The notes under the pieces were generated by a model that saw only the letters and a list, made by a program, of their open reading frames with translations, ran no database searches and was not told where the DNA came from. From Haliotis rufescens (Eukaryota): a stretch of DNA of 64,000 nucleotides. Every line of letters starts with the position of its first letter. The first letter of the stretch is position 1. This document shows positions 8,550-36,840 of this stretch, piece by piece. The DNA lies in the NCBI RefSeq assembly GCF_023055435.1, contig NW_025963813.1, positions 12,524,001 to 12,588,000 on the forward strand. The letters run 5' to 3'. The translations under genes and the position numbers were made by a program.

Positions 8550-8712
8550 TGCCGTGACGTCACTACAATCAGACCGCCCTAGTGATCGCTGAGGCTTGGT
8601 TACGTTGCTGTCAGCGCTGTACCCAAAGCTGCGTTTTACGTGATTATTGAAGAGACTGCGTTGTATTAATTTGGAAAATATATTTATTGATACACACCAT
8701 CAACTTAGGACG
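8550..8712 (+). promoter_or_regulatory. Putative promoter and non-coding first exon of paralog A, with CRE (TGACGTCA 8555-8562)
   Basis: Aligns with the reverse complement of 36681-36835 (TGACGTCA..ACAATCAGACC..CTAGTGATCGC..TACGTTGCTG..GATACACACCATCA..GGTAAG donor) although the surrounding intron DNA is divergent. Confidence 0.6.
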
Positions 8713-9077
8713 GTAAGATTAGCTGTAAATACTTCTTCTTTTTTTCAAGAAACAGACCACGAGCCCTTGATTAAAATATGCTATTGAAAACAACATCTGC
8801 ATCATTAATGCAATTATTAATCATAAAGAAGGTCTTTTTATAACTATATATTGACATGGAAGATTGTTTATATTATGTATTATTAAACAACGAAAGATTA
8901 GCCACAGAACCTTTAACCTCTGGTATACCGTTATATTTTGTTAATGTAAACTATTCTTCAAATACTTTATCTGTTGTAAACATCGTCAACAACATTCGAA
9001 TATTTAGAGGGTTAAAACAGTATGTTGTTATTTTTGTTTATTTTATTAATTCTATAATTTATGTGTCTCCTTTTCAG

Positions 9078-11572
9078 ATGGGTCGGTTGCTACGCAAGAT
9101 AGCAGTGAGAGCCGGGACACAGGTTCTGTCTCCCATACCGGAGTTGCCCGAAGGGTCTCGATCTCCTACACCAGTGAATGGTAAGTTGCTCGAAATATCC
9201 GCAAGGTCCACCAATGGGTGAGTTATCAGGCAATAGAAACACCTATATCATATACAAATAAAAGATTAAAATATATATAAGCATGTGGTCTCAATTTTGA
9301 GATATACGATTCATTACCAGTTAAAATATCTTCATATTTTGTGCTCTTGATATAAACAGCCGTCATCTGTTGATAAAGTGAGATAAAATGCAAGTAAGAT
9401 CATATTTGTTCAAAATCCATCGTTAGTGATGCTCCTGCAACCTTTAGTTTTTTGTTTTATGAATTGGTCATCAGGTTTGCTGCATACTTTTTGCAAAGAA
9501 ACATATTCCAAGTTGTTTCAAACTGCATGTTCTTCATTATAACTACTTCAGTACACGTGTCTAGTTGATGTTATTCTGTAATTAATTCAACCAATCATTG
9601 TTCTGTGTCATGCAGATGCTTTCAACACAAGTCCAAAGAGGCCAGAAAGCCCAAAACTCAGCGAAGAGGAATGGTAGGCTCTGTTGGCAGTTTCAGTATT
9701 GGCAGACAGAACGATCATTAAATGTTTCTTGTCTTTGAAATGGCTACTTTAGTAGTTCTGAAGTAGTTCTAAAGTAGTTCTAAAGTAGTTCTTTAGTAAT
9801 AACTACTTTCTAGTTCTTCAGTAATAAGTAAAATGGGGGTTAAATTATTCTTGTCCCTTACACCGCCCGTCAAGCAATATATGTTAACTTTTTCCACATA
9901 CTTTGTGACCATATTTGTCAACGCATCTGAATTCCAATTCAACATTTCACAAGCGCCATTTGAATTTGAGGAGATGCACCAAACGCAGAATTAACAAAAT
10001 AGTTAATTTAGAATTGCTTTTGATTCTTGTGAACCATCCACGTGAGATCGTTAATTTCGATTGAGTGTGACAAGTCATGTCCAAAACTTTGCAATCAATC
10101 TAGGGTGAGGTCATATAGCCCTCGTCCGGGCAAAGTGTCTCCAATACATCAGTTATTAACTTTAAAATTAATCCTCAGTGTTATCTTACGACTATTCGAT
10201 CTTGTGTAACCCATTAGTTTGACATTTCAAATTTAAAAAATATGTTCGTTCATAAAGAAACAGTGTATTTTCGCTCATATAATGTTAAATTAAAATCTAC
10301 AATTTGTAAAGTCTTGTTTTCTTCATCTCATATTCGGTTGTTAAAAAAATCTGAAGTCCTAGCTTTGTATTTTACATTTTTATATATTGATGATGTCATC
10401 CCTACTTCATTTGTTTCATTGAGCAGCAATCAAACTATAATTAAGACTTGTCGCCTTTTCGCAAACACCTGGTATCATCACTATTTGATAGTGATTCACG
10501 ATATAGTCGGAATCTATCGCTATCGCCTCTGCTTTCACCAGAGATTTCCTATGAATATGGAAAGGGTTTTGTCGCTTATATTTACGTTGCTCATGTGTGC
10601 TGATCATTTATAGTTCACTCTTTTCTTTTACCTAAAATCAGCGATAATTAAGACTGATCTTACGTTGCCCACATGTCTGTTGATTATTAAATGTTTATTC
10701 TTTTCATTGAGCAATAACCAGAAATAATTAAGACTTGTCTTCACGTTGCCAACAAATCTGATGAAAACATCCACGTCTGCTCTTACAGCTTCATGAAGCA
10801 CCTTCAGAGTCTCGCTGCGGACTACAAAAAGGAGATGGAACAGGTAGGAAGACAACTCCGTGTGATGCAGAGAAGAAACGCCCGGATTGAGAAGAACGCC
10901 GAATTCTACCACGTAGAGTACGACAACTACAAGCGGAACTGGGACAAAAACCAGGAGAAGATTCTGGGACTGAAGACGCGTCTGGACAAATACAAGCCAC
11001 TGAAGAAGGTCATTGACAGGTTGCATTCCCTCCAAGATAAAAACAAGCGACTGAGGGCCTCTTATTTCCAGACTGTTCTGGACAACAATTTTCTGAGGAA
11101 AACCTGGAAGAACATGGAAGGGGGAGAGATTGAGGATGAAGAATTTCCGGATGTTGAGAACATGAGAGAGGCAATAGCTCCAAGACCTCCCACAGCTCCC
11201 GACAATGGCCGGGCGGGATCAGCCAGACGACGCCCATACACTGGCAGGTCCAGGGCGGATCGGCCTCATCTGCCGCCTATCACAGAGAACAACAAAACGG
11301 TCACACCTCACAAGCAGACGACAGTTGAATCACATGAGAAGAAACAAAGCAAATCTCCGGTTCATCTGCCACAACTCGGGACAATGGTCCCCACTCCTCC
11401 AACATGTCCACGGAGAAATGCTCCCAGCAGACGACAGAGCAGAATTCCACTGGCCTTACCACCAATCCGTGGTGCGACTTCTGTGGATAGTCTTCGGCTT
11501 CCCCGCCAGGGTGTGCAGGATATTGGTCGCAAGTCTCGGGATCTGCAGGGGACAAGGGTGTCTCGTGATTAA
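9078..11572 (+). CDS. Uncharacterised coiled-coil + Pro/Arg-rich protein, paralog A, 314 aa; coding exons 9078-9180, 9616-9673, 10789-11572
   Basis: TTTTCAG|ATG; G|GTAAG; CAG|AT; TG|GTAGG; CAG|C. Total is 945 nt in frame. The exon structure is conserved in paralog B with mostly synonymous differences. Confidence 0.85.
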
Positions 11573-13268
11573 AGATGGATCGGACTAGTAAACATGGATG
11601 GATGACTTTATAATATACATTTCCTAAATAGATATCGGACATCTGTTGTCTTCATTAATTTTCTGAAATGAGGTTTTAGCACACTAAATTCTCAAGATTA
11701 ATGTAAAAATCCCAATTTACATTTCCATCCATCCTCTATACACCCACCCCCATCGTTCTGCCAACTATCAGGGCTGCTATTGCTCTCGGGGATTAAATGA
11801 CTACCTACAATATGATAATCCCCCATCTCTCCCCAACCAGATGCCAACATCAAAGTGTTGTCTGCTCAGTGCTCACAAAAAGAATGAATTATCCCCCCCC
11901 GCTTGGATCTTACTCCGGCCTTTCCTGCTTGTTGATTATGAAAGCTATCAGTAAAGTCTGAGATTACTTGATTGCTCAAATGAGCATACAGTTTACCAAT
12001 GGTTCAATGTGTGGTGCTTCTGTTTTAGATTCATGTCGCATGTGGGTTTCACACAGCCATATTATAACATGTATATTTTAGACAAAGTTCTTGTCTTTGA
12101 AAGGCATATAGAAGTGATACACTAAGGAAGAGAATTAATGGATGTCAACTTCTTTATCATGAGGAACACAACGTTTCGGAAGTATGCTTTCTCCTTTACG
12201 CCGCTTTTAGCAATACTCCAGCAATATCACGGTGGGGCTCATCTGAAATGGTCTTCAGAAACGCGGGCCAAAGAATGCTTGTAGAATATAGTTTTACATT
12301 TTTCAATGTGCTTCTTGTTTTTATGAACGAATTTCCTTACATAAGCGTTCATAGGAAGTATTGTTGAAAAGCTTTCTGCTATAATTTGTTAAAAATATAT
12401 TTCTTTATTTGAATGTTATAGTTTCGGTATCAAGTTGTTAAATATTTATTTTTATAATACGTTAAAAACATTTTCATCAGACTTTTGTGATTTATTGAAT
12501 GTCCATGCTATTATAGTATATAACGCGTTGTTCAATATTTAAATTGTTGAATAAAAAACCTAAAATAACAAGACGTATTTTCTACCAATTACAGGTATAA
12601 GTTTTTCAATGGAACAAACGCATTGTGGGTTTTCCAGTCAATGTATATTTCTTGGGATATTCATTCCCGCAATGTTTAAACTTTCTTGGCCTGTCTTCAG
12701 ATTAGTTGTGGTCTGCTTTTTATGTATTTATTGCAAATTCAAAATGTGCAACAGCTGATCTTCAGGGCTTGAGAGTCAGTGTCCAGGTTGACTGGACTCA
12801 TGGGTACCTGAACTGGTCCTCAACTGTGGAAGTTTTGGGTGGGGGGGACGTGAGCGAATCCGTTCCATTTGGTAACAAACCGGTTTCACCGAAATGTCTC
12901 GCTTTGTGAATATGGAATCCTCCTGTTTCTAACGGAATATCCGCCTTGATTTATAATGTATCTACGTCTTCCTTGTCGACTGAATCGGGCTTTACGCCAC
13001 ATAGCCTCAAAATGTCTTGATAACAAAGAAAACCTTAATGCTAGCCGCCTAGCTGTGTGATATGTGAAATTCTGCAATCGTTTTCACTGCCCGAGTCCTA
13101 TCTTTGTATTAAGTCCATTGCAGTTTGTGTTACATCATCGTAAATATCATCTTGTTGGAAAGTCACCATCTTTCTCAGAGAGGAAATTCGGACGCGAGTT
13201 TGTTCAATGCTAAGCTAGTTTCAGAACTGAGTTCAACCTTGGGGAGATTCATGTACTACCACATACGA

Positions 13269-13441
13269 GACTCGTGAAAACCCTGGGTAGTGTAGGTCTT
13301 CAGCAACCTCTGCTTGCCGTATGAGGCGATCGATGCTCATGATGTCAGTCACTGGATTGTCTGTTTCAGACTCGATTACTAACAGACCGCCGTCATATAG
13401 CTGGAAAATTGCTGAGTGCGGCGTTAAACAACAAACAAACC
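13269..13441 (+). mobile_element. Family C, internally deleted; a 5'-truncated copy lies at 14221-14435
   Basis: Head and tail match; ACCACATA on both flanks. Confidence 0.82.
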
Positions 13442-16400
13442 ACATAAAAGACCCCTTCAGCCTAAGCGGCATCGATGATATTATGAAAGAAACGAAGGTA
13501 TCGCGCGCTGGTTTATTCGGTTTCAATGGGAGACTAAGCAGTCAGCGGTTTTATGCATGTTTTTTAGTTAGCGCAATATATGCACTGTCGATAAGGGTGT
13601 GGCTTCATGGACCGCGCACTGCCGATTTCAGTTCCCTGGGGTCCACCCGGTTTATTCGGCTACCTGCAAACTACATCGGTACGACTCAATGGACTTGAGG
13701 AGCCGTGCCGTTGATGGTCAAAGGGAAATAACTGTAAATTCTGATTACCTTTTGCTAAACAGACTTGTCTCCCTTCGCGACAAGGACGTCAAGCTCCTTC
13801 CCAGCGCGTGACAACTTCGTTACACTCTCGGAGCTCCGCGAATGCTATCTCTGAGGAGCTTGCAAGGACATAACTCTTGTTTTCTCATACCTGGTGAGCT
13901 CACTTGGATTTGCGTGTGAAGTAACATCGTGATAGTACATAGTTCCATGAACGGTCGATTTGTGGGAGGACTTTTGTAAACAAAACCACTCCCCACGTGG
14001 TCCTTTACGATGTTTTTATCTATGCCAAGTCCATTTGTTTTCCATTTTTAGGAGAAAAATATTCGCATAAAGGAGAAAAAATTCAAACGTGCACTTTGAT
14101 TTTTAATTCACGTCACTGAAGCAGCAGCTTTGTGGCAGTAGTGATATCGGAAGTTTCGACAGTGTATCGGGATGGGAAGGAGCTTGTTCAGTAAGTCAAA
14201 GGGAAACTGCCCAATCAATCCATGCTTTCCGTAAACGGGGACTATGCTTGTCGCAAGAGGCGACTCATGAGATCGGGTGATCAGGCTCGCTGACTTGGTT
14301 AATGCAACTGCGTGGATTGATGCTCATGTTGTCCATCACTGGCTTGTCTGGTCCAGACTCGATTATTTTCAGACCACCATCATATAGCTGGAATATTGCT
14401 GAGTGCGGCGTTAAACAACAAACAAACAAAACAAAAGATGCTGAGTGTACACATGTATGCTTTAATGGACCGTGCACTGACGATTTCAGTCGCAAGCTCC
14501 GACGTTTAGGTTATACAGTTTGGCACTCACTCAATGAAGGTTCATAATCCAATGAACTCACACAAAATGAAAGTCAATTCTTAGTGTACACACCCAAATC
14601 ATTTTCTTTATTTGAAACAAAACGCAATTTTAAAATAGGTTAATATCAATGTTTAAAAATTTTACTCATTCCTCTCACATTGAGAGTAGGAAGCTCAAAA
14701 TAAGTGTGGAAATGTTATGCCCTTGATGTGAGGTCTTCCTGGTCTAATCTAAACAGGCCAGAGTTATACCCCTTAGATTTTGATGAGCCAATTTAACTGG
14801 GACCCTATCTAGTCACAAGGCAAAAGATATTAAGTACCAGTTTATGGTGAGACAACATGGCATCCAATATATAAAAAAATGTTGAAAAAAAAAAAAAATA
14901 TTTGAAATTGTAAAATATAATTTTTTCAAATTCTGACCTTCTGACCTGAATTTCTTGGGGGAAAAGTCTGTAACGCCCTCCCCCTAAAACTCTGTCCTAG
15001 CTGACTGGAAATATATACCCAATTATTATAATAACAACTAGCTTGATGTTATTGATAGTTCTTTATCTTTCATACATCATGGATGCTTTACAGATACCCT
15101 GTGTTCAGTATGTTCTTTTTGTTGACATACCTTATATGACATCGTAAAAATTCTTTTTCTATAACAAAATACAGTATGATAAGTCTGATAAGTTTAAATT
15201 GGCATGGCTTCCATGGCCAAAAGCTATGAATACACAATGCCTTTTAGAAATTGAGTGTGGGTTCAAATCCTGGATGAATGCCTAGACAAACCAGTGATTG
15301 ATAGCATGAGCAGAAGTAACTGTTCATGAGTGAAAATTTGGTTTAACTTCCCTTTGAACAGTTTTCCCATCACATGAAGATGTGTCAGACTAATGCATGA
15401 GTCAAATCTAAATTGATGCTGGTCCCTGATCAGTAGATCCTGCATGACAAAGGGACGCAACTCCTTGTGGTACCCATCACCCATTGTACCATTTTACAAT
15501 GAAAACAAGTCCATGAAATTTAATGAATACCACATAGCATTTCTACACAGAGTAAATATAATGCGATCCAAAATTCACCATAAAGGAGCAATGCTTTTGG
15601 CAAGAATATTCCCATCTTCCCGAGGCAAGAGAGTTAACTGACTATAAAAGTCTAGTTTCCACCCTTCCTGATACACAGTATCTGTCAACCTAACCTCGTC
15701 ATGCAAATACTGTTGCCTTGAACTCTGTGTTGAACTAATTGTCCAGTACAATTGAATTCCTTCAATTCTTATCACTATTTGACCTCTAATAAGTCGAATC
15801 AGGATTTGGACACATTTTTTTTTATCTTAGGTCTCTTTTAGTTCTGACTATCATCAGTCTGTTTAAGCATGGGAGTTCTGATTGATGGCTAAGATCGCTT
15901 TGTGGAACAATGGCTCAGTGACTCCTAAGTACAAAACTGCCCTGATAATCAAACTGTATAAACTTGTGAAACTACAATACATCATGTGAGTGAGTGAGTA
16001 TGGTTTTACGCCACTTTTAGCAATATTCCAGCAATATCACGGCGGGGCACACCAGAAATGGGCTCAGTTATTTTTCAAAACATAAAACAGGTGCTCAATT
16101 GCTTATTTTTTTACACAAAGATCAATAAGGAACTGCATTTTTTAGCAAAAACAGGGGCCTTATTATTTTCTTTTTACACAAATCCCTGAACCCCCCTGAA
16201 AATCAAATAGAGCTGTTGCTCCCCAAGTAATCTTTTATTAACTCAACACTATATTTGCTTGCTTAACATGAACTTCTCAATACTGTAATCTACTGTAGTT
16301 CAGAAATAATATTCAGGGTTTGAAATTGGCACTAGTCCTATTATTGTCCTTGCAAATCTGCCCAATAGTTAAAGTATCATAATGACCAGTAGATATTTGC

Positions 16401-17511
16401 CATTTTTAGGGGTTTTGCTATATATTATCATTATAATGACTTGTGGACCAAAAATGTTAAGTTTTTACCGCTGATATTGTAATGCTTTGACATTGAGAAT
16501 CTGTTTCAAATCTGTGCTTGATATGTCAAACCTTTTCTCAGGTCCATGCAGTTCAAAACAACAGCGCTTAACTGTGTGTATTTCATTGCGTTCAACGCAT
16601 TCAGTGCCAAACATATTTATGTATACACGTTAAACAAGGCCTGTGTGGAACATTGTGGTGATAATGTGGAAGGTAAAGAGCCACATCAACAAATATATAA
16701 ATATTTACATATAATACAACAATAACAATGTTTAACAATTGTGAGTATGGTTTTTTGTTGCCTATTTCATCAATATCCTGGCAGTGGACACCAGTACTGG
16801 GCTTTACATACAATACCAATGTGGCAAACCGGGCACTGAACCATGGACCAGAGACCATATAACAGATTATATTGTCTGGTCTCTGCTTGGACCATGACAA
16901 GCCAACAATTTAACCGCTTGGCTACCCCACAGCCCCATAAAAAATATGAACACATGAGAAAGATTATCGAAACTTAATTAAAAAAAATTCAAATCACTAA
17001 CATTTTGAGATACATCATGACGGCCATGTTGAAAATGTCCTTTTCGGCCATCACTCAGTCAATTTTGCATGTACTGTTGTGAAATTTGACATGCAGCAAG
17101 TATGTGATTTTCAGAATAAGATATGAATACTTTGATTTTTCATCCAGCTGCGACCCATGACTGACTTTTCTGCCCGATGAACATTTTATCAAAGCATTAG
17201 AAAGAACTCCAAAAGTAGATAGACATGGGAAGGGAAGTAACTCTTGGACTCCAAGCAGCATGCTGCTTTCATGCCTCCACTTTACTCTTTTGAATTGCTG
17301 TCCATGCATATAAGGAATACTTGAAATTTTACATGCAATTTTATTTCATTTTGGTCCTGAACCCCATTTCGGAAAAAAGAATCCTTGAAGATTGATCTAC
17401 TCATACACCAAAGATCATGGAGAGTTAACCCTCATCACATAAGGCAGTAAGCAACCTCTCTTCAGGCTATAGTCTTGTGAATGAGCTTGACCCATGAAAT
17501 GATATATCAGT

Positions 17512-17943
17512 TAGGGCTGGGACGAGTCCAAATTTACTACCCGGGTACCCACACCCCTATTACCCGACTCTGCTCAGATCATGCAGATACCCGCTGTTGG
17601 TGTCAAAAGATAGGTACAAAATGTCCTATTGGGTATAGTTTGACAGTAGCCCTGGCAAAATGTATTAAGATACACGTATAAAACGATGTGGTCATTCATA
17701 CACTGAAGTTGACTGAAGTTTTAGCTTTGTTCAAACATATATAAGTCAAAAGGAACGTGTTTCATAGTCATAAAGAAATGCAAACATGAGAAATTGTCGT
17801 GTAACCATGTAGTTATATAGTGATTTTGTGTCATGAAACAAAATATCACGTGACTAACCATGGGTCAGGGTAGTCCTGTGGGTACCCGGGTCCTACTCAG
17901 AACCCACCAGACCCGAGTACCCGAGTTACCCGTCCCAGCCCTA
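17512..17943. mobile_element. hAT-like MITE
   Basis: TIR TAGGGCTGGGACG / CGTCCCAGCCCTA; 8-bp TSD ATATCA(G/A)T. Confidence 0.85.
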
Positions 17944-18368
17944 ATATCAATGTAATCAAAAATAATTCCCAGGGCAATCATGGTATATGCATGATACATG
18001 TTTGATATCCCTGTGACGATGATGTCCAAGCATCATATGGTTCCAAAAACAAATTGCGGCAGCAGTGATTCATATTTACATGGGGCTGTTTAATGAACAA
18101 ATTTCAACAAAATCAAGTAAGGCCTTATTTTTTAATGGTTTACAGATATTTAGCCAATACTAGAGGGACTATTTAAGGTTGGTCAAACTTAAAATAGAAC
18201 ACATTTTTGAAGTAAAGTATAGACAAATATTTTAAAAATACATCCAAATCAAGTCAAGTGATCATTTTGTGTGAATTGATTTTGTCAGGGGATCTGTGAG
18301 CCAAATATTTGAAAACATAAGTGTATTATCATGGCAATGTATGTATATTTTAGAAAAGGTCAAACTAA

Positions 18369-18532
18369 GAGTGAGTGAGTGAGGTTTTACACTGCTTTTA
18401 GCAATATTCCAGCAATATCACGGTGGGGGACACCAGAAATGGGCTTCACACATTGTACCCATGTCGGGAATCGAACCCGGGTCTTCGGCGTGACAAGCAA
18501 ACGCTTTAACCACTAGGCTACCCGACCGCCCC
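18369..18532 (-). mobile_element. SINE family A
   Basis: Full-length match; TSD TCAAAC(T/A)AAGA. Partial or diverged copies lie at 12196-12258, 15986-16065 and 16741-16935. Confidence 0.9.
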
Positions 18533-19266
18533 TCAAACAAAGAACATCAAAGACAATAGATACTGTGCAACAATGAAATCTCATATGGCGCTTTCCTTCA
18601 TGGCAGTGAAAGCTAACCTATTTATATACATGAGTTTTTCTACTCATACAACATCAATAAACTTTGAATACGAATAACAAAAGCGAACATCCTTGGATCC
18701 AAAAATATGCAACATTCCCCAACTGACATTTTATTTGTTTACCATTATTACTATATGTATGGTTGCTGTTGTCCACAACACTCAAAATTCAACCTCCATG
18801 ACAGTGGCCTCAATATAATCATTTCTGAACTGGACAAACCAGTGACTGATATTATGAGCCACTGTTGGGGTATGAAGACACAAAATGAACCAAGTCACTG
18901 GTCTGACAACCCGATCCATCAAGTTGCCTGTATGACAAGCATAGGCTGCATGGGGCCTGTTCTTACCCGGAATCCCCATGGGGACGATAAATAACGATAA
19001 ATAGAGGAGTCACAGAGTATCGCACAAAAAATCCCCTTCTTCGTCCCCCCTTCCCCCCCCCAGGTAAGAAAGACTATAAACATGGTATACCATACGTACA
19101 GGTGGGTTAAAGACTATAATGAAAGTGAAACAAATGTGAAAGAATGCGAAGTGCTGACTGTTTCTAATTGGTGACAAAAATTATATTTAATGCCAATACA
19201 ATACCTGAGCACATTTTAAAATCCTACAAAATGTCTGTCAACATATCAAAGGTTATGATGATTGAT

Positions 19267-21877: not shown

Positions 21878-24277
21878 TCAAAAACCAAAATACGAGGCAT
21901 TGGTGTCTCCTTGGACAGTGTCATTGACCCCTGTAGCTGAGGAACCTGGGACATCGTCTTGGTCAACCGAGGAATGGGAGCTGTTCTGTTCATCATGTTC
22001 ATCATGTTCATCATGTTCATCTTGCTCGTCCTGTTCATCTTGTTCATCTTGTTCGTCCTGGTCTTCACTGTCACTTTTCAGTTTCTTCTTCATCTTCTTT
22101 CTCCCCTTCCTCCCCGGCTTCATCAGATGGCGAAAGGCGGGAATACCTGGCACAGCATTGTATGTGGCCTTCTCTTTCTCCTCCACCATATCAGGGTGGC
22201 GCTTCTTCATGTGCCAGTTCAATGAAGACTTCTGTCGACATCTATAATCACAGAAGTTGCACTGTACTGGCTTTGAATCTGAATGAATTCTCAAATGAAC
22301 ATAGAGGTGTTTCTTGGCCATGAACCCTTTTCCGCACTGTTCGCACTTGTATTTCCTTATTTTGTAATGAGATATGTTCATGTGAATATCAAGTTCAGTC
22401 TTCTTCTTTGATCTAACGTTACAACCTTCGAAAGGGCATGGAAATGACCTTTTCCCAAGATGCACTCTGTCGTAGTGAAGATCAACAAGTCTTGACAACA
22501 CTGACTTGTATTTACAGCCTTCAAACTTGCAGTAGATGTACAACCCAGCATGCTTCTTCATATGGTTTCGGAAAGATGTTTTACTCCCGGAAAGGTAGTT
22601 ACAAATTGGGCACTTGAGGTCTCCTTCTCTTGCAATGTTGGTTATCCCATGAGCCTCTTCCATGTGGTTTCCCGCTGAGTCCCACACTGTGAACGTCATC
22701 CCACAGATGTGGCACACACAGTTGTCAAACCGACTTGCACTGGATTCGTACGGATTGTGCACAGCTTTCACATGCCGCTGTAGTTTAGTAATCAGTGGGG
22801 TACTAAATGTACACCTTGTACAATACAGAACTTCCCCATGAGCAGTTTTGCGATGTTCTCGAAAGTCCCCAATGGTACCAAAGGTCCTACTGCAAACACT
22901 GCATCTGTAAGGGTGATGGATATCCATGTGCGCAACTGCCTTTTCTTTATCAGGGAGAACCTCCTTGCAGTTCTTACACAAATACTCTGTCTCCGACTTC
23001 TCCTCAATGATGAGGCTATACAAAGTCTCAGTATCAAATTCCATGGCACCGATTCTGAAAGTTGATGATGTCTCGATCTCCTTCTTTGCAGGCTTTTCCT
23101 TCACTTCTTTTGGAGTCTTCTCAAAAGTCGGACTTGGTTGTCTGTGTTGCAAGTCCTCATCCTGACCTAAAATGATACCACCTTCAACAGTATCCATGGT
23201 ATCACAAACTGGAATTCCAATGGCTGGTCTAGTGTCAATATGAGTAAACTTTCGGACCAGATCATCGGAAAATGTCACTCTGATCCCGGGGCTGTCCTCT
23301 TCTTCAGAGTCAGTATTCAAAGCACTATTACTGTAGGACTCATGAGACACCTCGGGGATTTTCTCAGTAGTTCCAGCTTGTTCTTCAGAACATCCTTCAC
23401 TTGATGGCCTCCAAGAATTTCTTCCACTTTTCACACTGACTACTTGAGGAGCCATACATGTTTTCTTTTGATCATCAGCACTGAAGTCAAATCTAGAGAC
23501 TGTCGTATGATCAGAGGATGAATCCATCGCACTTATTGACTTTAAATAGTTCTGAAAGATGTTGGTAATTTCATGCTTAGACACAGCTGATGCTAGTTGT
23601 GAAGCTATGGCTGAGGTGTACGGTACTTTCCCATAATAACTTGCAGTGAAGGGGTATTGATCATCACAGAGCATATTGTGGATATCTGCCTGTCTGTTTG
23701 AACCTTCAGTCTGGACTTTATCACAAATACCTTTTGACAATGACATGCCTATAACTGTTTGTGTCACTGTAGGTTGAGCATTGGTCTGGAGAGTTGAGAC
23801 ATTCATAGGGATTGATTGTCCAGGAACCTCTAAAATTATTGGAGGTTGGGAATTTGAGTTTATAACACTCCCAGAGAGTGAAGACTTTGGAACATGGGAG
23901 GTCATTTGCAGACTAGTCCCTTGTGCAGAATTTCTTAACAAAACACTCTTCCCAAAAGCTGTCATTTGCCCACTGGAGTTCAAAAGCAAAATGTTTCCCA
24001 CAGGCTGCTTCTTGACAACAGTGGACATCTTTGGACTTTCAGGTTTGTTCTGAACTGACGGCATGGTCACTGAGAGTGCAGGATCGCCAAACAGACCTGT
24101 TGATTGCTGGATTAATACTTCTGACTGTTTATTGGAATTTCTTGTTTTTTTTATGCTCATCTTTGTGCCCTTATTTGACGAGGGCTTGCTGCTTGTGGGT
24201 GTGACATACCTGTCCTGTGATTGATCAGTAATGTAGTAATCTGCTCCAAATACATTCAGGTCAGTGTCTTTTTCCAT
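21878..24277 (-). CDS. C2H2 zinc-finger protein, 799 aa, 9 fingers; ZFP91/ZNF653/ZNF692/ZNF276-like C-terminal fingers; single coding exon
   Basis: Uninterrupted ORF with nine CxxC/CxxxxC...HxxxH units. The last finger VQCNFCDYRCRQKSSLNWHMKKRH matches the family signature CRQKASLNWHMKKH. It is followed by a basic NLS-like tract and an acidic DEQ/DEH tail. An upstream acceptor (TTTCATTTCAG) lies near 24590. Confidence 0.92.
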   Translation of the reverse strand: MEKDTDLNVFGADYYITDQSQDRYVTPTSSKPSSNKGTKMSIKKTRNSNKQSEVLIQQSTGLFGDPALSVTMPSVQNKPESPKMSTVVKKQPVGNILLLNSSGQMTAFGKSVLLRNSAQGTSLQMTSHVPKSSLSGSVINSNSQPPIILEVPGQSIPMNVSTLQTNAQPTVTQTVIGMSLSKGICDKVQTEGSNRQADIHNMLCDDQYPFTASYYGKVPYTSAIASQLASAVSKHEITNIFQNYLKSISAMDSSSDHTTVSRFDFSADDQKKTCMAPQVVSVKSGRNSWRPSSEGCSEEQAGTTEKIPEVSHESYSNSALNTDSEEEDSPGIRVTFSDDLVRKFTHIDTRPAIGIPVCDTMDTVEGGIILGQDEDLQHRQPSPTFEKTPKEVKEKPAKKEIETSSTFRIGAMEFDTETLYSLIIEEKSETEYLCKNCKEVLPDKEKAVAHMDIHHPYRCSVCSRTFGTIGDFREHRKTAHGEVLYCTRCTFSTPLITKLQRHVKAVHNPYESSASRFDNCVCHICGMTFTVWDSAGNHMEEAHGITNIAREGDLKCPICNYLSGSKTSFRNHMKKHAGLYIYCKFEGCKYKSVLSRLVDLHYDRVHLGKRSFPCPFEGCNVRSKKKTELDIHMNISHYKIRKYKCEQCGKGFMAKKHLYVHLRIHSDSKPVQCNFCDYRCRQKSSLNWHMKKRHPDMVEEKEKATYNAVPGIPAFRHLMKPGRKGRKKMKKKLKSDSEDQDEQDEQDEQDEQDEHDEHDEHDEQNSSHSSVDQDDVPGSSATGVNDTVQGDTNASYFGF

Positions 24278-24648
24278 AGCACAGTAATGAGGACACCAGG
24301 CAACACTATCAAAGTCACATTTTCAAGATAACAACTTACTGTTCTTTATAAATATCATTTCTGGAGACACATACTGGGCATGTGCTTCACACAAAACTGA
24401 CTGATTCATTATTTTCAGAATAAATGCATTTTGTATTAGCTTGGTGCAACCATATTTTCATCAGTATCCTGTATGATGTATTTTCACAAATGGTTGCACA
24501 GTCATTCTGTTTCATTGTTTACCTTTGAACAACAAGGCAAACAATCTCTCACATCACTTGGGCCTGAATATTTGGGCACAGGATATCATCTGAAATGAAA
24601 TGAAAAAAAACAACTTAGAAAATGAACTATCTAAAACCATAAAATAAA

Positions 24649-27576: not shown

Positions 27577-27770
27577 TGCAGCTTTCGCGATTCCTGTAAC
27601 TGTTGCGTCCCAATGTTTGCACTGGCGATCGAACTTTCGAAAGATTTATTTTATCCAACAAAAGCATTAAAGACTCTTTCGTGTTTCAAGGAAGATAACT
27701 CTAAATTAAGTGCTATTCGGTAATCGGTATACCACTAGTGATAAAACTTGTCTCGCGAAACATCCCCAGA
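27577..27770 (-). promoter_or_regulatory. Possible non-coding first exon and promoter of the zinc-finger gene
   Basis: Minus-strand donor CAG|GTAGA near 27577, local CpG enrichment, TCTCGCGA-like motifs near 27583 and 27751. Confidence 0.35.
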
Positions 27771-28164
27771 CAAGTATATCGATATATTACATATTACCGT
27801 TGAGATAACATTAATGGCGCGATTTAATTAAAAATATGATAATTCAAAATACATGTCCACCGAATAATGTCCTAAATCAGCAACAAAAATATTTAAATAA
27901 CAGTCTATTTATATTTTGCTTGAGATACCACTATATATCATGAGGGGCAGATGCCAGCTTCTTATTGATTCAAGTGTTCGCTGGTGTACTTTGTCGTGAT
28001 ATTGCTAAAAGGCGAAAAACTCACTGATAACCCATACTGGTAGAAAGGTATGTTCATTCAATAAATTAATTTAACATCAAACACATTCTTGATTGGATAG
28101 TATAGAGACAGAACTTGCTTGTAATGAAGCTTTTACAGTAATGCAGACAAATATATCAGTAGCA

Positions 28165-30375
28165 TTGGTATGGTGAAGTGAGGCGAAACGGGATTTAACG
28201 ATGAGTCCAAGACGCATGCGTGCGTGCGTGCTTGAGTGAGTGAGTGAGTGTGCTTGTACTTATGCCGGTTTTTAGTGCTAGCCGAGTGAGTGAGTGTGCT
28301 TGTAGTAGTGCCGGTTTTTAGTGCTAGCCGAGTGAGTGAGTGTGCTTGTACTTATGCCGGTTTTTAGTGCTAGCCGAGTGAGTGAGTGTGCTTGTAGTAG
28401 TGCCGGTTTTTAGTGCTAGCCGAGTGAGTGAGTGTGCTTGTACTTATGCCGGTTTTTAGTGCTAGCCGAGTGAGTGAGTGTGCTTGTACTTATGCCGGTT
28501 TTTAGTGCTAGCCGAGTGAGTGAGTGTGCTTGTAGTAGTGCCGGTTTTTAGTGCTAGCCGAGTGAGTGAGTGTGCTTGTACTTATGCCGGTTTTTAGTGC
28601 TAGCCGAGTGAGTGAGTGTGCTTGTACTTATGCAGGTTTTTAGTGCTAGCCGAGTGAGTGAGTGTGCTTGTAGTAGTGCCGGTTTTTAGTGCTAGCCGAG
28701 TGAGTGAGTGTGCTTGTACTTATGCCGGTTTTTAGTGCTAGCCGAGTGAGTGAGTGTGCTTGTACTTATGCAGGTTTTTAGTGCTAGCCGAGTGAGTGAG
28801 TGTGCTTGTACTTATGCCGGTTTTTAGTGCTAGCCGAGTGAGTGAGTGTGCTTGTAGTAGTGCCGGTTTTTAGTGCTAGCCGAGTGAGTGAGTGTGCTTG
28901 TACTTATGCCGGTTTTTAGTGCTAGCCGAGTGAGTGAGTGTGCTTGTACTTATGCCGGTTTTTAGTGCTAGCCGAGTGAGTGAGTGTGCTTGTAGTAGTG
29001 CCGGTTTTTAGTGCTAGCCGAGTGAGTGAGTGTGCTTGTACTTATGCCGGTTTTTAGTGCTAGCCGAGTGAGTGAGTGTGCTTGTACTTATGCAGGTTTT
29101 TAGTGCTAGCCGAGTGAGTGAGTGTGCTTGTAGTAGTGCCGGTTTTTAGTGCTAGCCGAGTGAGTGAGTGTGCTTGTACTAATGCCGGTTTTTAGTGCTA
29201 GCCGAGTGAGTGAGTGTGCTTGTACTTATGCAGGTTTTTAGTGCTAGCCGAGTGAGTGAGTGTGCTTGTAGTAGTGCCGGTTTTTAGTGCTAGCCGAGTG
29301 AGTGAGTGTGCTTGTACTTATGCCGGTTTTTAGTGCTAGCCGAGTGAGTGAGTGTGCTTGTAGTAGTGCCGGTTTTTAGTGCTATCCGAGTGAGTGAGTG
29401 TGCTTGTAGTAGTGCCGGTTTTTAGTGCTAGCCGAGTGAGTGAGTGTGCTTGTACTTATGCCGGTTTTTAGTGCTAGCCGAGTGAGTGAGTGTGCTTGTA
29501 GTAGTGCCGGTTTTTAGTGCTAGCCGAGTGAGTGAGTGTGCTTGTACTTATGCCGGTTTTTAGTGCTAGCCGAGTGAGTGAGTGTGCTTGTAGTAGTGCC
29601 GGTTTTTAGTGCTAGCCGAGTGAGTGAGTGTGCTTGTAGTAGTGCCGGTTTTTAGTGCTAGCGGAGTGAGTGAGTGTGCTTGTACTTATGCCGGTTTTTA
29701 GTGCTAGCCGAGTGAGTGAGTGTGCTTGTAGTAGTGCCGGTTTTTAGTGCTAGCCGAGTAAGTGAGTGTGCTTGTACTTATGCCGGTTTTTAGTGCTAGC
29801 CGAGTGAGTGAGTGTGCTTGTAGTAGTGCCGGTTTTTAGTGCTAGCCGAGTGAGTGAGTGTGCTTGTAGTAGTGCCGGTTTTTAGTGCTAGCCGAGTGAG
29901 TGAGTGTGCTTGTACTTATGCCGGTTTTTAGTGCTAGCCGAGTGAGTGAGTGTGCTTGTACTTATGCCGGTTTTTAGTGCTAGCCGAGTGAGTGAGTGTG
30001 CTTGTACTTATGCCGGTTTTTAGTGCTAGCTGAGTGAGTGAGTGTGCTTGTAGTAGTGCCGGTTTTTAGTGCTAGCGGAGTGAGTGAGTGTGCTTGTACG
30101 TATGCCGGTTTTTAGTGCTAGCCGAGTGAGTGAGTGTGCTTGTAGTAGTGCCGGTTTTTAGTGCTAGCCCGCTGAGATACAAAGCCGCTCCTTCACATGG
30201 ATACCCTTCTCCGACACAGAAAACTGAATCTGAGCCGACCATTCCTTTTCATGTGAGTTATATGCAGGCAGAATAACAACACGCACCGTCTTTTGGAACG
30301 ACGCGGCCAGGGATTAAACCACCGAACTTCCGCTCGCAGAGGAGACTCTCTATTCACTGGGCCATGGAGGCGGTC
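28165..30375 (-). mobile_element. SINE family D (tRNA head + Meta-domain-like body) split by an internal minisatellite
   Basis: Head and body at 30375-30170 (A/B-box-like; GGTCGGCTC..TATCTCAG..GCTAGCACTA), tail at ~28215-28165 (CTTGGAC..CGTTAAA..TCACC); collinear with the copy at 36390-36605. Confidence 0.75.
28238..30169. repeat. 46-bp minisatellite, about 42 units (GAGTGAGTGAGTGTGCTTGTACTTATGCCGGTTTTTAGTGCTAGCC)
   Basis: Head-to-tail array with two main variants (TACTTATG / TAGTAGTG) and no spacers. Confidence 0.97.
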
Positions 30376-30424
30376 GTACAATCAGTATAAATAAGCAGGG
30401 TAAAACAACGCCGCTCATCCGTTC

Positions 30425-30704
30425 GTGAGTGAGTGAGTTGGGTTTAACGCCGCTTTTAACAGTATTACAGTCATTTCGCGGCGTGTCAGCTTAATGTGGG
30501 AGGAAAACCCGAAGTGATGCAGGTCTCAGACAATTACCACTTCGGTGAAAACCACGAGAACTGGTATGGTGCTGACAAACCTAGAAACATAATCGGGGCG
30601 AACCGGGATTCGAACCTACAATCATAGGTTTCTGGCGGGGGAAAGGAACGCAACTCTGTACAGCGAATCGAGGCGCATCAGACGACTGGGCCACCCGTGC
30701 CCCC
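30425..30704 (-). mobile_element. SINE family B
   Basis: Full-length reverse-complement match. Confidence 0.88.
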
Positions 30705-30800
30705 TTATCCGATAGTCCCGAGGTGAGTGAACATTTGGACTACTGGGGACTACTTGGATTATATGACCAAATCTAGTTGAGTTCCGAAGTCCACTGGTTT

Positions 30801-30968
30801 GAGGGTGGTCGGGTAGCCTTGTGGTTTAAGCGTTCGCTCGTCACGCCGAAGACCCGGGTTCGATTCCCGACATGGGTACAATTTGTGAAGCCCATTTCTG
30901 GTGTCCCCCGCCGTGATATTGCTGGAATATTGCTAAAAGCGGCGTAAAACCAAACTCACTCACTCACT
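30801..30968 (+). mobile_element. SINE family A (tRNA-derived, ~170 bp), full-length copy
   Basis: A box GTAGCCTTGTGG, B box GGTTCGATTCC, tail GCTGGAATATTGCTAAAAGCGGCGTAAAACC(ACTC)n, TSD CCACTGGT(T/C)TGA. Confidence 0.9.
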
Positions 30969-31312
30969 CCACTGGTCTGAAATAAACTGTGGAATGGTTG
31001 TGCTTAACTCATGGTGTCTACCTCAACTCATGGTGTCTACCTCGATGTTGACTTATTATTAAAAACTTGAGAACTCATTGGTGATATCAGGTTCAGCACG
31101 TGCATATATGAAATGAAAACAACATATTTTTTAACAACTATTCATTTAATTTTATTCAACATCTGTATTTTTCGACTTAAATCTATTATAAATCAAATGG
31201 TAAACATTGTAAACAGCAGTAACAAAGTTGTAAATATATTTTTGTATAGGTAAATGTAAAGTTTTCCCAAACGTTCCATTATAAAAAGTACTCAGGAACA
31301 GAACAAGTCCAT

Positions 31313-31560
31313 ACAGTAGAACCCCGCTTATCCGGGCACTTGCGCTTTTCAAGGAATGGTCCTGATAAACGAATATAATGTTTTCGTTTTGCATTAATCT
31401 TGTCCGGTGTGCGGGGTTCCGGATAAGTGGAATCCGGACAAGCGGTGTTCCAATATGCATCGGAAATTTTAAATTATTTTTTGGTTTACTTTTTAAAACT
31501 TTTCCCGTCTGCGGGGTTTCAGGCTAAGCTGGATTCGGGCAAGCGGGGTTCCACCGTGTA
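31313..31560. mobile_element. Tc1/mariner-like MITE (another at ~51724-51908)
   Basis: TA-CAGTAGAACCCCGCTT ... AAGCGGGGTTCCACCG..TA. Confidence 0.65.
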
Positions 31561-32209
31561 TGATAAATATATGCAAGCACCTTGCAAAATAGTTTTGCGC
31601 TCAACAGGTATTGGTCTCATGCATAACCAACACAGATTTTTATAAATAACTCACATATGTGCATTGATAAACAAACAGCACCATAATACACCGGGAATCC
31701 AAATATAGACAAAATGTATGTAAATCTTGCTCCTTCGCCATCTCTGGGCGTGAGTGCATCCGCCTTGCTGTGCACCCAATCGGGGACGTGGCGCCATTCC
31801 AAACAAGCATTCAACAGATACATTACTGCCCTCTGTTTCAAAGGGTTTTTATGTGCATCATTGGTCGGTACAGCGTTAACAGACGAGGAGAGACTTGGAA
31901 ATTAAATTTCAGCCTTGTTGTTCGGAGGTACGGAGATTTTACCTGTAGGAGTGGGGGATGAGTAGACAAGGGAGACTGTCCAAAGATGGACTGATTGACG
32001 GACGGATGGATGGATGGATGGATTGATGGATATACAGAATGGATGAAAAGAAACGATTCGGATGTTTGACGGAAGCCGTTAGTGATATGCGCATAAGGTT
32101 TGACTTTATGTCTGCCGACTATACGTTGTTGAAAGGTTGACGTCAGATATATATATTGAAAATGTTCATTATAAATTCATCCATCCATGTTTACTAGTCC
32201 GATCCATCT

Positions 32210-34952
32210 TTAATCACGAGACACCCTTGTCCCCTGCAGATCCCGAGACTTGCGACCAATATCCTGCACACCCTGGCGGGGAAGCCGAAGACTATCCACA
32301 GAAGTCGCACCACGGATTGGTGGTAAGGCCAGTGGAATTCTGCTCTGTCGTCTGCTGGGAGCATTTCTCCGTGGACATGTTGGAGGAGTTGGGACCATTG
32401 TCCCGAGTTGTGGCAGATGAACCGGAGATTTGCTTTGTTTCTTCTCATGTGATTCAACTGTCGTCTGCTTGTGAGGTGTGACCGTTTTGTTGTTCTCTGT
32501 GATAGGCGGCAGATGAGGCCGATCCGCCCTGGACCTGCCAGTGTATGGGCGTCGTCTGGCTGATCCCGCCCGGCCATTGTCGGGAGCTGTGGGAGGTCTT
32601 GGAGCTATTGCCTCTCTCACGTTCTCAACATCCGGAAATTCCTCATCCTCAATCTCTTCCCCTTCCATGTTCTTCCAGGTTTTCCTCAGAAAATTGTTGT
32701 CCAGAACAGTCTGGAAATAAGAGGCCCTCAGTCGCTTGTTTTCATCTTGGAGGGAATGCAACCTGTCAATGACCTTCTTCAGTGGCTTGTATTTGTCCAG
32801 ACGCGTCTTCAGTCCCAGAATCTTCTCCTGGTTTTTGTCCCAGTTCCACTTGTAGTTGTCGTATTCTACGTGGTAGAATTCGGCGTTCTTCTCAATCCGG
32901 GCATTTCTTCTCTGCATCACACGGAGTTGTCTTCCCACCTGTTCCATCTCCTTTTTGTAGTCCGCCGCGAGACTCTGAAGGTGCTTCATGAAGCTGTAAG
33001 AGCAGACGTGGATGTTTTCATCAGATTTGTTGGCAACGTGAAGACAGGTCTTAATTTTTTCTGGTTATTGCTCAATGAAAAGAATAAACATTTAATAATC
33101 AACAGACATGTGGGTAACGTAAGATAAGTCTTAATTATTGTTTTATTGTTGCTCAGTGAAACAAATGAACTATGGATTTTTTACGACCGAATGTGACATC
33201 CAAAACTTAACGTGACACATTAACATGGTTTTGTAGGTTTTAATGAAACATTATATTAACGAAAATAAACTGTTTCTAAATTTATACGCTTAATTTTTTA
33301 TTTTGATAAAATATAATATGTATTGATTTCAAACTAATGTATAACACACAGATTGAATATTCTGAATATGACACAGAATTAACGTTTAATGGTCGTTCTG
33401 TCTGCCAATCTCTATGTAATACTGCCTACGATGCCTACCATTCCTCTTCGCTGAGTTTTGGGTTTTCTGGTCTCTTTGGACTTGCGTTGAAAGCACCAGC
33501 TTGAAACAAAACAATGACCAGTGAAATAAATTAGAGAATTACATTAACTAGACACATGTACTAGAGTATTTTTAATGAAGAACACGCAGTTTGAAAATAT
33601 CTCCTGTATGTTTCTTTTAAAAAAAAGTATCGTCTCAACCGTAAGGATATTAGTACCTTTAGTCTCTTTCATGATCGCCGTAATATTGCAACGATTATGT
33701 GCTTCTAGTGAGTGAGTGAGTATGGTTTTACACCGCTTTTAGCAATATTCCAGCAATATAACGGCGGGGGACACCAGAAATGGGATTCACACATTGTACC
33801 CATGTCGGGAATCGAACCCGGGTCTTAGGCGTCACGAGCGAACGCTTTAACCACTAGGCTACCCGACCGCCCCATATGTGTTTCTAATGCACTCAACCGC
33901 TGTTACAGGGCGCACAGAAATTATTTCATCGAAATTTACGCTAAAGCCATAGACAGACCCTTTTAAACTTTATATGAAATTAAGTAAGGATAGGTTCTAA
34001 CACCGTTATCAAACAAGTGATATATAGAGCAAGGTTGACAATTATATATACAGGTAGGAGGCAATGTTTATACAGTAGAGTAGATATCAGATGTAGTTAT
34101 ACTGGAGTGGAGAGGCCTGTTATGTACACAAATTCGTAGAACAGACATTACCGGCGAAGTCAGTAACATAAAAATTAAAAAAACCTACAAAAAGCCATCG
34201 ATATCCAAAGACTACAAACGTCGATCAACCGTGACCAAGAAATTGTTAACCTTCATGAAGAGATATTCGGAAATGTACCAATTCATAAATGTTGTGATAA
34301 AAAAAGAGAACACAATGTTGTGGATAAGCACCATAAAGGAAGGATTTTAAGTGAGTGAGTGAGTATGGATTTACGCCGCTTTTAGCAATATTCCAGCAAT
34401 ATCACAGCGGGGAACACCAGAAATGGTTTCACACATTGTACTCATGTCGGGAATCAAAACCTGATCTTCGGCACGACGAGCGAACGCTTTTACCACGAGG
34501 CTACCCGACCACCTCATGAAGGATTTTGAACTGGTACGATTTGTCTTGTACTGCATCTCGTTTTACCTTCAGATGACAGCTGTTCATTTCGAGAGCAAAA
34601 ATATGAAGACCTTTGAACTGCTTTCTTATATTGTGTTCATTTGTTATATTAGCCGATATTAATCTCTGTACATATATCTTGTAATTCATACACAACATAA
34701 TGCGGTTATAACGATGACAATACAATGACGTAACAAATAATGCTGAGTAATATCGCTTAGGATTGTAATTGTCACTTCACAATACACCGTAAAAATTGCG
34801 TCCATATAATGAGACATTTTAATATATTAATTTCAAAAACATTACTTACCACTGACAGGCGTAGGAGATCGGGACTCTTCGGGCAACTCCGGGATGGGAG
34901 ACAGAACCTGTGTCCCGGCTCTCATGGCTATTTTGCGAAGCAACCGACCCAT
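32210..34952 (-). CDS. Uncharacterised coiled-coil + Pro/Arg-rich protein, paralog B, 315 aa; coding exons 34952-34850, 33499-33439, 32993-32210
   Basis: Reverse-strand homolog of paralog A with the same splice phases; the exon-2 acceptor is shifted 3 nt; the reading frame is open. Confidence 0.85.
33707..33873 (-). mobile_element. SINE family A (intron of paralog B); a second copy lies at 34350-34513
   Basis: Full-length matches with imperfect TSDs; absent from the corresponding intron of paralog A. Confidence 0.88.
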
Positions 34953-35239
34953 CTGAAAAGAACAAGAAGAAATATGAACTATTTTGAACTTGATTAGTAG
35001 AAACAAATCAGCGTAGATATGAAAATATATGATAATAGTATGTGTTGAAAGAAAGGAAAGTTTCGAATTAGCGTTGGACCAGTAATCTCCCCGACAGAAC
35101 TTCAATGATACTATCCCACATTAAAGGTCATTGGCTTCAACATCAGCAAAGTTCTGTCAAATTTGAAGAATCTATCAATAATGTGAAAGCAAAAAACAGA
35201 CAGGAGACATGAATAATCACTAGTCCGCCTGAAACATCA

Positions 35240-36390
35240 ATGCTTCCGCCGCCATGCTGTATCATACGGATAAAGTACGCCGCAAGCACGAACAGTCACA
35301 TACCAACAATCATTTATACCTTCTTCAATCAAATTATGGAATGAGTTACCCCCTGAATACAGAAGTGCAACATCATTATCAAATTTTAAACACATGATTA
35401 AAACAACCATTACAGCTCCACCTCCATACTTCTCAATCGGCAACCGTAGAGCTAATATTTTACATACACGCCTAAGGCATTCTTGCAGTTCCCTAAATGC
35501 AGACCTCTTTAAAGTAAATTTATCTGATACTTTGTCCTGCTCTTGTGGAAACCCATGTGAAAACAACATACACTTTTTCCTTGAATGTCCCAATTACACC
35601 ATTCCCAGAAATATCATGTTCGCTAACATTATAAAAGCTGGAACTACATGTACAATACAAAATATTCTCTACGGTGATGTAACCTCATCTTCAACAGCGT
35701 TCAAAAATATATACTGTCGACTAATAGATTCGAGTAACCCTTTATCATTAATACAGAATATCGCTCTGCGACCATTTATTATTAATTACGCCATCAGTGA
35801 ATAAACTGCATGCATGTATATGAATACAGTTGTATCTCTGCCTCCTTCTGTAAACATAATGTTTACGGGTATATATACCCTGGTGTATGTGTGTAAATAT
35901 GTGTATGTATATATATGTATGCATGCGTATTCAAGGGTATATGTGTATGTATGTACATGTAGTGTGTGTAGGTATGCATATGTGTACATGTACATAAGTG
36001 TATGTATGATTGTGTAATTATATATGTAGTTTTGCATGTATTTTGGATTAATGTGTACATACAAGTAAACTGTGTCTATAGACAATTCTTATGCATGACT
36101 GTCTATGTTATGGAGTCTATGTTTATGTTCTTGTGTAAATATATTTCTCTTTGTTACTTCTCTTTGTAATAAGTGTATATGTATCTGAGTATGTGTATGT
36201 ATGTATGTATGTATGTATGATTGTGTGTATATATGATTATGTGTATATGTATGTATATGTGTATATATATGTATAATCAATGTCTGTACATATAGAGTAG
36301 GGAAAGGGCCACCTAAGTTGGATAACTTTTGCCCAATCCCGTTGACCATATATGTCAATAAAATATGTTTAAAACAAAACAAACAAAACA
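35240..36390 (+). mobile_element. 5'-truncated CR1-like LINE (ORF2 C-terminus + 3' UTR) in the 5' intron of paralog B
   Basis: Translation RTVTYQQSFIPSSIKLWNELP...HTRLRHSCSSLNADLF...CSCGNPCENNIHFFLEC is typical of a LINE ORF2 end; TA/TG-rich 3' UTR ending AATAAAATATGTTT(AAAC)n. Confidence 0.8.
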
Positions 36391-36605
36391 AGGACTGGTC
36401 GGCTCGGGGTCAGTATACTGTGTCTGAGTTGGGTATTCATGTTAAACTGCGGCATGGTATCTCAGTGAGCTAGCACTATAAATCGGCATCAGTCCGGACT
36501 AGTACAAGCAGCCACACACACACGTGCATGCACGTCGCTATATAAGTGCAATAATCTTGGACGCGACGTTAAACCCAATTTCACCTCACCTCACCTCACC
36601 TCACC
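36390..36605 (+). mobile_element. SINE family D, 5'-truncated
   Basis: GACTGGTCGGCTCGG..CAGTGAGCTAGCACTATAAA..CTAGTACAAGC..CGTTAAACCC..(TCACC)n, resembling the MetaSINE body. Confidence 0.72.
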
Positions 36606-36680
36606 AAATGCAGACTGAACAAATAATTCTGTTTTTGGTTTCATCAATTTCTAAGAAATAAAACCTCTTTATATAAAAAC

Positions 36681-36840
36681 TTACCACTGTAAAGTGATGG
36701 TGTGTATCCAATAAATATATTTATCCCAGTGTCTTCGGTAATCAGACAAAACGTCGCTGTAGGTACAGAGCTGGCAGCAACGTATCCACGCCACCGCGAT
36801 CACTAGGGGGTCTGATTGTCGTGACGTCATATCACGTGAC
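36681..36840 (-). promoter_or_regulatory. Putative promoter and non-coding first exon of paralog B, with CRE (36822-36829) and adjacent E-box
   Basis: Homologous to 8550-8712, with a conserved donor GTAAG near 36684. Confidence 0.6.

Follow-up and report, generated by a model that had tools for sequence, protein, structure and literature searches.

A near-identical last exon in a diverged inverted gene pair of Haliotis rufescens points to localised gene conversion

The window analysed here, a 64,000-nt stretch of the Haliotis rufescens genome (contig NW_025963813.1, positions 12,524,001 to 12,588,000), holds two collinear, tail-to-tail copies of one gene, 20.5 kb apart, which were identified by self-comparison of the window and by an inverted-repeat scan: copy A (LOC124139170, forward strand) and copy B (LOC124139171, reverse strand). 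The pair is the longest of 149 inverted repeats in the window (1000 nt, 98% identity, arms 20,495 nt apart), confirming the original prediction, made from the sequence alone, of two convergent copies about 20 kb apart around a zinc-finger gene. Reading frames are intact in both copies, with 314 codons in copy A and 315 in copy B, and both match RefSeq proteins (Table 1). The additional residue of copy B comes from its exon-2 acceptor (33499-33496), which lies 3 nt upstream of that of copy A; the B-like protein of H. cracherodii has the A-type length at exon 2, without this extra residue. The homology also takes in an upstream block common to both copies, a promoter or non-coding exon in which 119/144 positions are identical.

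Table 1. Coordinates of the two gene copies, of the near-identical tract and of the zinc-finger gene between them (positions in the window)
Feature	Position	Strand	Remarks
Copy A promoter or likely non-coding first exon	8555..8712	+	Starts at TGACGTCA; exon status inferred from shared GT donor
Copy A coding exon 1	9078..9180	+	Spliced product is P0004 / XP_046362153.2
Copy A coding exon 2	9616..9673	+	
Block only in copy A, 205 nt	10452..10656	+	From alignment; adjoins 5′ edge of tract
Homogenised tract, arm A: 132 nt of intron, exon 3, 33 nt of 3′ untranslated region (UTR)	10657..11605	+	13/949 differences, without gaps
Copy A coding exon 3, predicted coiled coil and disordered basic tail	10789..11572	+	
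Stepped 3′ edge, then indel-rich diverged 3′ UTR	11606..11643	+	9 mismatches/38 nt
C2H2 zinc-finger open reading frame (ORF) in spacer, 814 codons stop to stop	21878..24322	-	PF00096, E=7e-19
Homogenised tract, arm B	32177..33125	-	
Copy B coding exon 3	32210..32993	-	Spliced product is P0001 / XP_048250787.1
Copy B coding exon 2, 61 nt	33439..33499	-	
Copy B coding exon 1	34850..34952	-	
Copy B promoter or likely non-coding first exon	36685..36829	-	

The two copies share a gap-free core of 949 nt in which only 13 positions differ (98.6% identity), while the non-tract remainder of the duplication is 79-90% identical. Within this core lies exon 3, where 10 of 784 nt differ and a single difference falls in the last 410; exon 1 differs at 11/103 nt (8 synonymous and 3 non-synonymous changes) and exon 2 at 4/58. 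The manual counts that had been given for exon 1 (11/103, 8 synonymous) and for exon 3 (about 10/784, one in the last 400 or so) proved exact. Synonymous differences number 9 in 38.6 sites over exons 1 and 2 (synonymous divergence, dS, about 0.28) versus 6 in 179 sites of exon 3 (dS 0.034; Fisher p=1.8e-4), and intronic differences 3/132 inside the tract (2.3%) versus 108/522 outside it (21%; p=1e-8); since the tract was defined after looking, these p-values are optimistic, the intronic one most of all. Introns that had been called barely alignable do align in five homologous blocks outside the tract, where 414/522 positions match (79%, Jukes-Cantor divergence 0.24). This divergence, together with the separate A-like and B-like flanks found under three organism labels (see below), supports the proposed old inverted duplication, and the predicted purifying selection on exons 1 and 2 is likewise supported by a ratio of non-synonymous to synonymous divergence of about 0.16 (p=0.001).

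The tract had also been described as sharply bounded, which is true of its 5′ edge and not of its 3′ edge. The 5′ edge falls exactly at the end of the 205-nt block present only in copy A, and owes its sharpness to coincidence with this indel. The block consists of a high-copy repeat of about 130 nt (10454-10584), with a depth above 40,000 in all four sequencing runs described below, and of one extra degenerate 78-nt unit; the unit directly upstream of the indel is 88% identical between the copies, like unconverted intron. At the indel the copy B junction reads like a hybrid of two 78-nt unit ends, so that a deletion in copy B would be the simpler origin. Acquisition of the extra 78-nt unit of copy A by out-of-register conversion was considered and is weakly disfavoured, as this unit and the adjacent one are 76% identical, within the 71-76% range of such units among themselves, as against about 87% for true A/B counterparts. 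On the 3′ side, identity holds up to 11605 and decays in a step before the indel-rich UTR. Near-identity thus extends into both intron and UTR, as predicted, over 132 and 33 nt rather than the 150 and 70 or so that had been estimated.

Four of the 24 public runs listed were compared over 9000-11800, as 31-mer contigs only: X2 and X6 from organism A, X15 from organism B and X12 from organism C, belonging to three studies in which organism labels are coded. In 4/4 runs most of the tract was recovered as a single contig at 1.6-2.3 times the depth of the A-flank. Tract depth, compared with the depths of the A-flank and of the B-like flank, was 20.1 versus 8.6+7.8, 23.1 versus 14.5+13.6, 77.3 versus 43.7+41.8, and 51.8 versus 30+29.3, where the term B-like is inferred from difference counts among the letters listed. 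The ratios of tract depth to summed flank depth are accordingly 1.23, 0.82, 0.90 and 0.87, to be compared with an expected 0.83-0.87 from the reference pair and 0.60 at 5% divergence. In each run exon 1 or exon 2 was resolved into distinct contigs, whose other letters were as many as expected; the 3′ UTR was split likewise in three runs, and A-like and B-like flank contigs were present at similar depth under all three organism labels. Among the pieces listed for the four runs there was no second tract contig with about 10% other letters, and no contig spanning the tract and both flanks, 31-mer contigs being unable to phase across the tract. The summed depth of the tract and the separate flanks argue that two copies with a near-identical exon 3 are present in individuals other than the reference animal and under further organism labels, and finding both copies under three labels suggests that the duplication is older than the organisms compared.

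The same contigs suggest how stable the reference A/B differences are. The single-copy A-flank differs by 0.8-3.0% between the reference and the four runs, a range that includes the A/B divergence of 1.4% in the tract. The B letter is the one carried throughout the contigs of X2, X6 and X12 at position 9105 of exon 1, and positions 10846 and 10879 show nothing but the B letter in every contig of X12. Agreement between X2 and X6 is found at 9/12 reference A/B sites (p=0.07), which is suggestive only. Several of the reference A/B differences therefore look like private polymorphisms rather than fixed differences between the paralogs. The intron of reference copy A differs from X15 at 11 of 1318 nt, from X2 at 32 of 1484 and from X6 at 28 of 1481. 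In intron 1 of copy A (9200-9611), 17 of the listed departures from the reference are common to X2 and X6; they are mostly absent from X15, X12 and copy B, and probably represent a deeply diverged haplotype block. Derivation of these letters from copy B was rejected, with 3 of 10 alignable sites matching B and one lying in a gap.

Comparison with H. cracherodii, for which one protein (P0002) is on record, bears on the timing of homogenisation. In exons 1 and 2 (54 amino acids), P0002 sides with copy B at 5 sites and with copy A at 1, and stands apart from both at 2; in exon 3 (260 amino acids) the corresponding numbers are 2, 2 and 11, and the two patterns differ (Fisher p=0.022, or 0.046 if a site private to the reference is omitted). 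An equal-branch (star) test of exon 3 gives 11/15 (p=0.002), and in the last 135 codons no residue differs between A and B while 6 differ in H. cracherodii. Over the whole exon, 13/260 residues differ from H. cracherodii and 4/260 between A and B. A single-copy family member differs at 28/324 residues between H. rufescens and H. cracherodii, which indicates that 13/260 is ordinary between-species change, and 4/260 is too low for copies that separated before the H. cracherodii split; homogenisation would thus have followed that split, in the H. rufescens lineage. At the protein level, and with one H. cracherodii copy, paralogs appear closer than orthologs inside the tract, and orthologs closer than paralogs outside it. 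Recent conversion of the last exon, as originally predicted, is thus supported both by the heterogeneity of neutral sites and by these site patterns, and the grouping of exon 3 came out as anticipated, albeit with a single H. cracherodii protein standing in for the two copies. No second H. cracherodii copy was found among near-length and shorter proteins (up to 630 amino acids); copy number beyond the window comes from protein records only. In H. rubra, P0008 differs at 31/70 amino acids in exon 3 and at 10/54 in exons 1 and 2, this protein being truncated and possibly decaying.

We consider interlocus gene conversion of some kind highly probable, and favour, with a probability of roughly 0.7, recurrent conversion confined to one long indel-free block. 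After duplication, repeats and indels would have fragmented the introns. Recombination needs a few hundred nucleotides of near-perfect homology, and its suppression by small divergence was reportedly described by Lukacsovich and Waldman in 1999; exons 1 and 2 (103 and 58 nt) would have been too short to seed it, and so may have escaped. The 784-nt exon 3, kept free of indels because it is coding, would remain able to pair with its counterpart at a distance of 20 kb, and breaks in exon 3 of one copy would be repaired off the inverted twin. Every such conversion would restore identity and favour the next, so that the exchange could sustain itself, and no selection for homogeneity would be needed. 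On the 5′ side, conversion tracts would be cut off by the 205-nt indel; on the 3′ side they would peter out in the indel-rich UTR. Most events would be non-crossover. Any crossover within the tract would invert the spacer of 20.5 kb, and the two copies would exchange their 3′ UTRs.

A number of observations weigh against recurrent conversion or reduce its support. The choice of “recurrent” over “once” rests on the layering of differences within the tract (p=0.04) and on the near-identity seen with each of three coded organism labels; bubbles and phase are hidden in contigs, and the comparison drew on 40 of 141 variant rows and on 32 of 40,851 pieces. At position 10918 organism C has both letters, like the reference, a pattern compatible with an old site that conversion has not reached. 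Tract contigs of organism C differ from reference copy A at 12/791 nt, compared with 10/791 between A and B over the same positions, which is not decisive; at least 4 of these 12 differences, carried by one or both of its copies, depart from both reference copies. GC content is only slightly raised over these short stretches, at 0.55 versus 0.50 in third codon positions of the exon 3 tract and at 0.35 versus 0.27 in the intron. With one H. cracherodii copy on record the comparison is three-way rather than a two-by-two species tree, a fast H. cracherodii branch would mimic part of the signal, and the maximum-likelihood protein tree leaves the fork between A, B and H. cracherodii open.

The strongest competitor, which we nevertheless consider unlikely, is that the exon-3 block was replaced once, by one long conversion or by template switching, after the H. 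cracherodii split, and then diverged in the ordinary way. Such an event would leave one contiguous gap-free block with one sharp edge, the 1.4% divergence could have accrued since, and the DNA of organism C fits single and recurrent models alike. It is harder to reconcile with the uneven spread of differences, the first 506 nt holding 12 of them and the last 443 only 1 (permutation test with 400 shuffles, p=0.04), with runs of 229 and 213 nt that are identical between A and B, with near-identity under all three organism labels, and with reference differences that look polymorphic rather than fixed.

It is improbable that the tract acts as the pivot of a recurrent flip-flop inversion of the 20.5-kb spacer, with homogenisation accompanying crossover. 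The geometry is like that of the flip/flop region of Saccharomyces, described in the available text of PMC9731477 as an inverted homogenised repeat around 24 kb, and identical runs longer than 200 nt are present; however, a second orientation is not on record, contigs being unable to phase across the tract, the arm measures 0.95 kb with a 20-kb spacer as compared with a 4-kb arm in yeast, and non-crossover conversion accounts for everything seen.

An assembly or polishing artefact, with reads of one copy overwriting the other, is unlikely, and in our estimate very much so. Mis-polishing can yield a near-identical exon with diverged flanks, and the contrary evidence comes from contigs of other individuals rather than from the reference's own reads, but agreement of tract depth with the sum of two separate flank contigs in 4/4 runs from three studies, the lack among the pieces listed of a second tract contig with about 10% other letters, and the 13 sites at which the reference arms differ, 6 of whose B letters are found in contigs of other individuals, all speak against it; the check on this point proposed in the original prediction thus went in its favour, on contigs rather than reads. 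Strong purifying selection that keeps exon 3 alike in both copies is hardly credible, even though this exon holds the predicted coiled coil and the invariant residues of the family, since homogenisation extends to synonymous sites and to 132 nt of intron, which selection cannot explain, and since exon 3 changes freely between species (13/260 amino acids to H. cracherodii, 31/70 to H. rubra P0008).

The protein encoded by the two copies is a predicted coiled coil known only from Haliotis. All of its convincing relatives belong to this genus, in three subfamilies distributed over H. rufescens, H. cracherodii, H. rubra and H. asinina, with identities of 31-72% between subfamilies or distant species, except for one pair at 82%. 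Family members comprise LOC124139170/171, LOC125383503 and LOC124120556 together with relatives from H. rubra, H. asinina and H. cracherodii, and have the motifs RRR-x-x-T and LPP[IV] in common. The AlphaFold model consists of one long helix, confident over residues 51-164, with disordered basic tails (predicted local distance difference test 61.6, predicted template modelling score 0.27). The protein has no hydrophobic segment, and a Pfam search of exon 3 returned 0 families. A HMMER search over 1.84 billion representatives gave 8 matches, 5 of them Haliotis family members; the weak, multi-stretch matches P0011-P0013 (E 3e-8 to 6e-4) were set aside as likely generic coiled coils. The ESM Atlas yielded only unnamed clusters at 0.91-0.92, named ones lying below 0.9 and not being used, and no relatives were found among 210 pattern matches in metagenome contigs. 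One H. rubra member is labelled “PER10-like” by NCBI, a name for which the sequence searches gave no support, and no search showed any relationship of the family to lysin or sp18.

Our tentative best guess at function is a coiled-coil protein located inside the cell, in sperm or cilia, in line with SxIP and LPPI motifs, rapid evolution and a conserved upstream motif, which we take as hints in this direction. The sequence TGACGTCA, presumably similar to a cAMP response element, is kept in both copies where the upstream block begins (8555 and 36822), and it occurs 12 times in the window, which makes it weak evidence for testis expression.

Two H. rubra proteins of the sister subfamily, P0003 (XP_046580367.1) and P0010 (XP_046580372.1), are encoded on the same contig of 1,003,182 nt; about 195 of their residues are identical, while their N-termini differ and P0010 has a frame change near its C-terminus. 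They may possibly represent a second homogenised pair, or else an uncollapsed haplotype. It would be a long shot to combine all of this into one scenario, in which the exon-3 tract is an animal flip/flop pivot across abalone species that repeatedly inverts the 20.5-kb zinc-finger spacer and swaps the 3′ UTRs of fast-evolving, possibly sperm-expressed orphan genes, and in which P0003 and P0010 have been homogenised likewise as a trait of the family.

Copy-specific repeats are indeed present, as had been predicted: two copies at 33707-33875 and 34350-34517, found in copy B only, are presumably short interspersed elements, and the ORF at 35274-35804, which we take for part of a long interspersed element by resemblance, had no Pfam match. 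A further inverted match, between 13587-14112 and 37201-38443 (72-77%), does not lie collinear with the arms and was treated as a dispersed repeat. A minisatellite of 42 copies of a 46-nt unit occupies 28238-30169 in the spacer, and another, with 53 copies of 38 nt, lies to the right of the arms (57356-59383). Near the C-terminus of the zinc-finger ORF, a 9-nt coding microsatellite (21987-22067) encodes an acidic run (DEQ/DEH). Neighbouring genes include an ORF with leucine-rich repeats (2820-3746, forward strand) and, at 53949-56123, exons of a gene that resembles those of lytic polysaccharide monooxygenases and has a Thr-rich linker (forward strand; LPMO_10, E=1e-4).

A literature search by five identifiers returned no papers naming these genes or proteins, subscription papers and supplements being outside its scope, and among the papers listed for abalone and gene conversion, judged by titles and the beginnings of abstracts, none dealt with this locus. 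The available text of PMC9022041 treats duplicated abalone sperm proteins and holds nothing on the present family; phased Haliotis assemblies are listed in that of PMC12627906. The locus offers a natural example of concerted evolution retreating to the last long indel-free block, with one edge pinned to a single indel, and the literature searches made yielded no described mollusc case of this kind. For abalone population and conservation genomics it also means that exon 3 reads and variants of the two genes cannot be assigned to one copy or the other. Should the spacer flip, it would constitute a small trans-species recurrent inversion like the one in yeast.

Arms of mammalian sex-chromosome palindromes extend over many kb. 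The abalone tract, 0.95 kb at 98.6% identity, is unlike these palindromes, for which the available text of PMC8981503 gives more than 99%. Greater likeness is found in the flip/flop region of Saccharomyces chromosome XIV, formed by an inverted repeat of the Centroid genes YNL018C and YNL034W: as far as the available text of PMC9731477 goes, inverted copies there, as in abalone, surround a gene-bearing spacer, of 20-24 kb in the two cases, and the repeat, which belongs to a fast-evolving and often-duplicating family, is homogenised within species and diverged between them. In Saccharomyces, however, the whole 4-kb two-gene repeat is homogenised, both orientations are documented and germline expression of the repeat genes is shown (PMC9731477), whereas in abalone homogenisation is limited to a 0.95-kb last-exon block and expression is suggested by sequence hints only. 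The mammalian pairs BMP8A/B (inverted), DDX19A/B and TUBG1/2 are also old duplicates in which some exons and intron sequence have been homogenised and paralogs are closer than orthologs; their tracts take in two or more exons together with an entire intron, in numerous species, over a span exceeding 100 million years and with raised GC (available text of PMC2720389), in contrast to one exon in few species in abalone. Converted and diverged regions stand side by side in GOT1p1/GOT1p2 of Tigriopus californicus as well (PMC3728101, available text), and conversion in tail-to-tail or head-to-head pairs is described for the inverted hsp16 and hsp70-7/8 genes of Caenorhabditis (PMC3966223, available text). 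Those copepod and worm genes encode known enzymes or chaperones, and the worm loci are adjacent (PMC3728101, PMC3966223), whereas the abalone genes encode an orphan protein, are separated by a 20-kb spacer and have a tract edge defined by an indel. The pattern itself is therefore a known one, produced by the textbook process of gene conversion, of which the abalone pair is a new and clear example.

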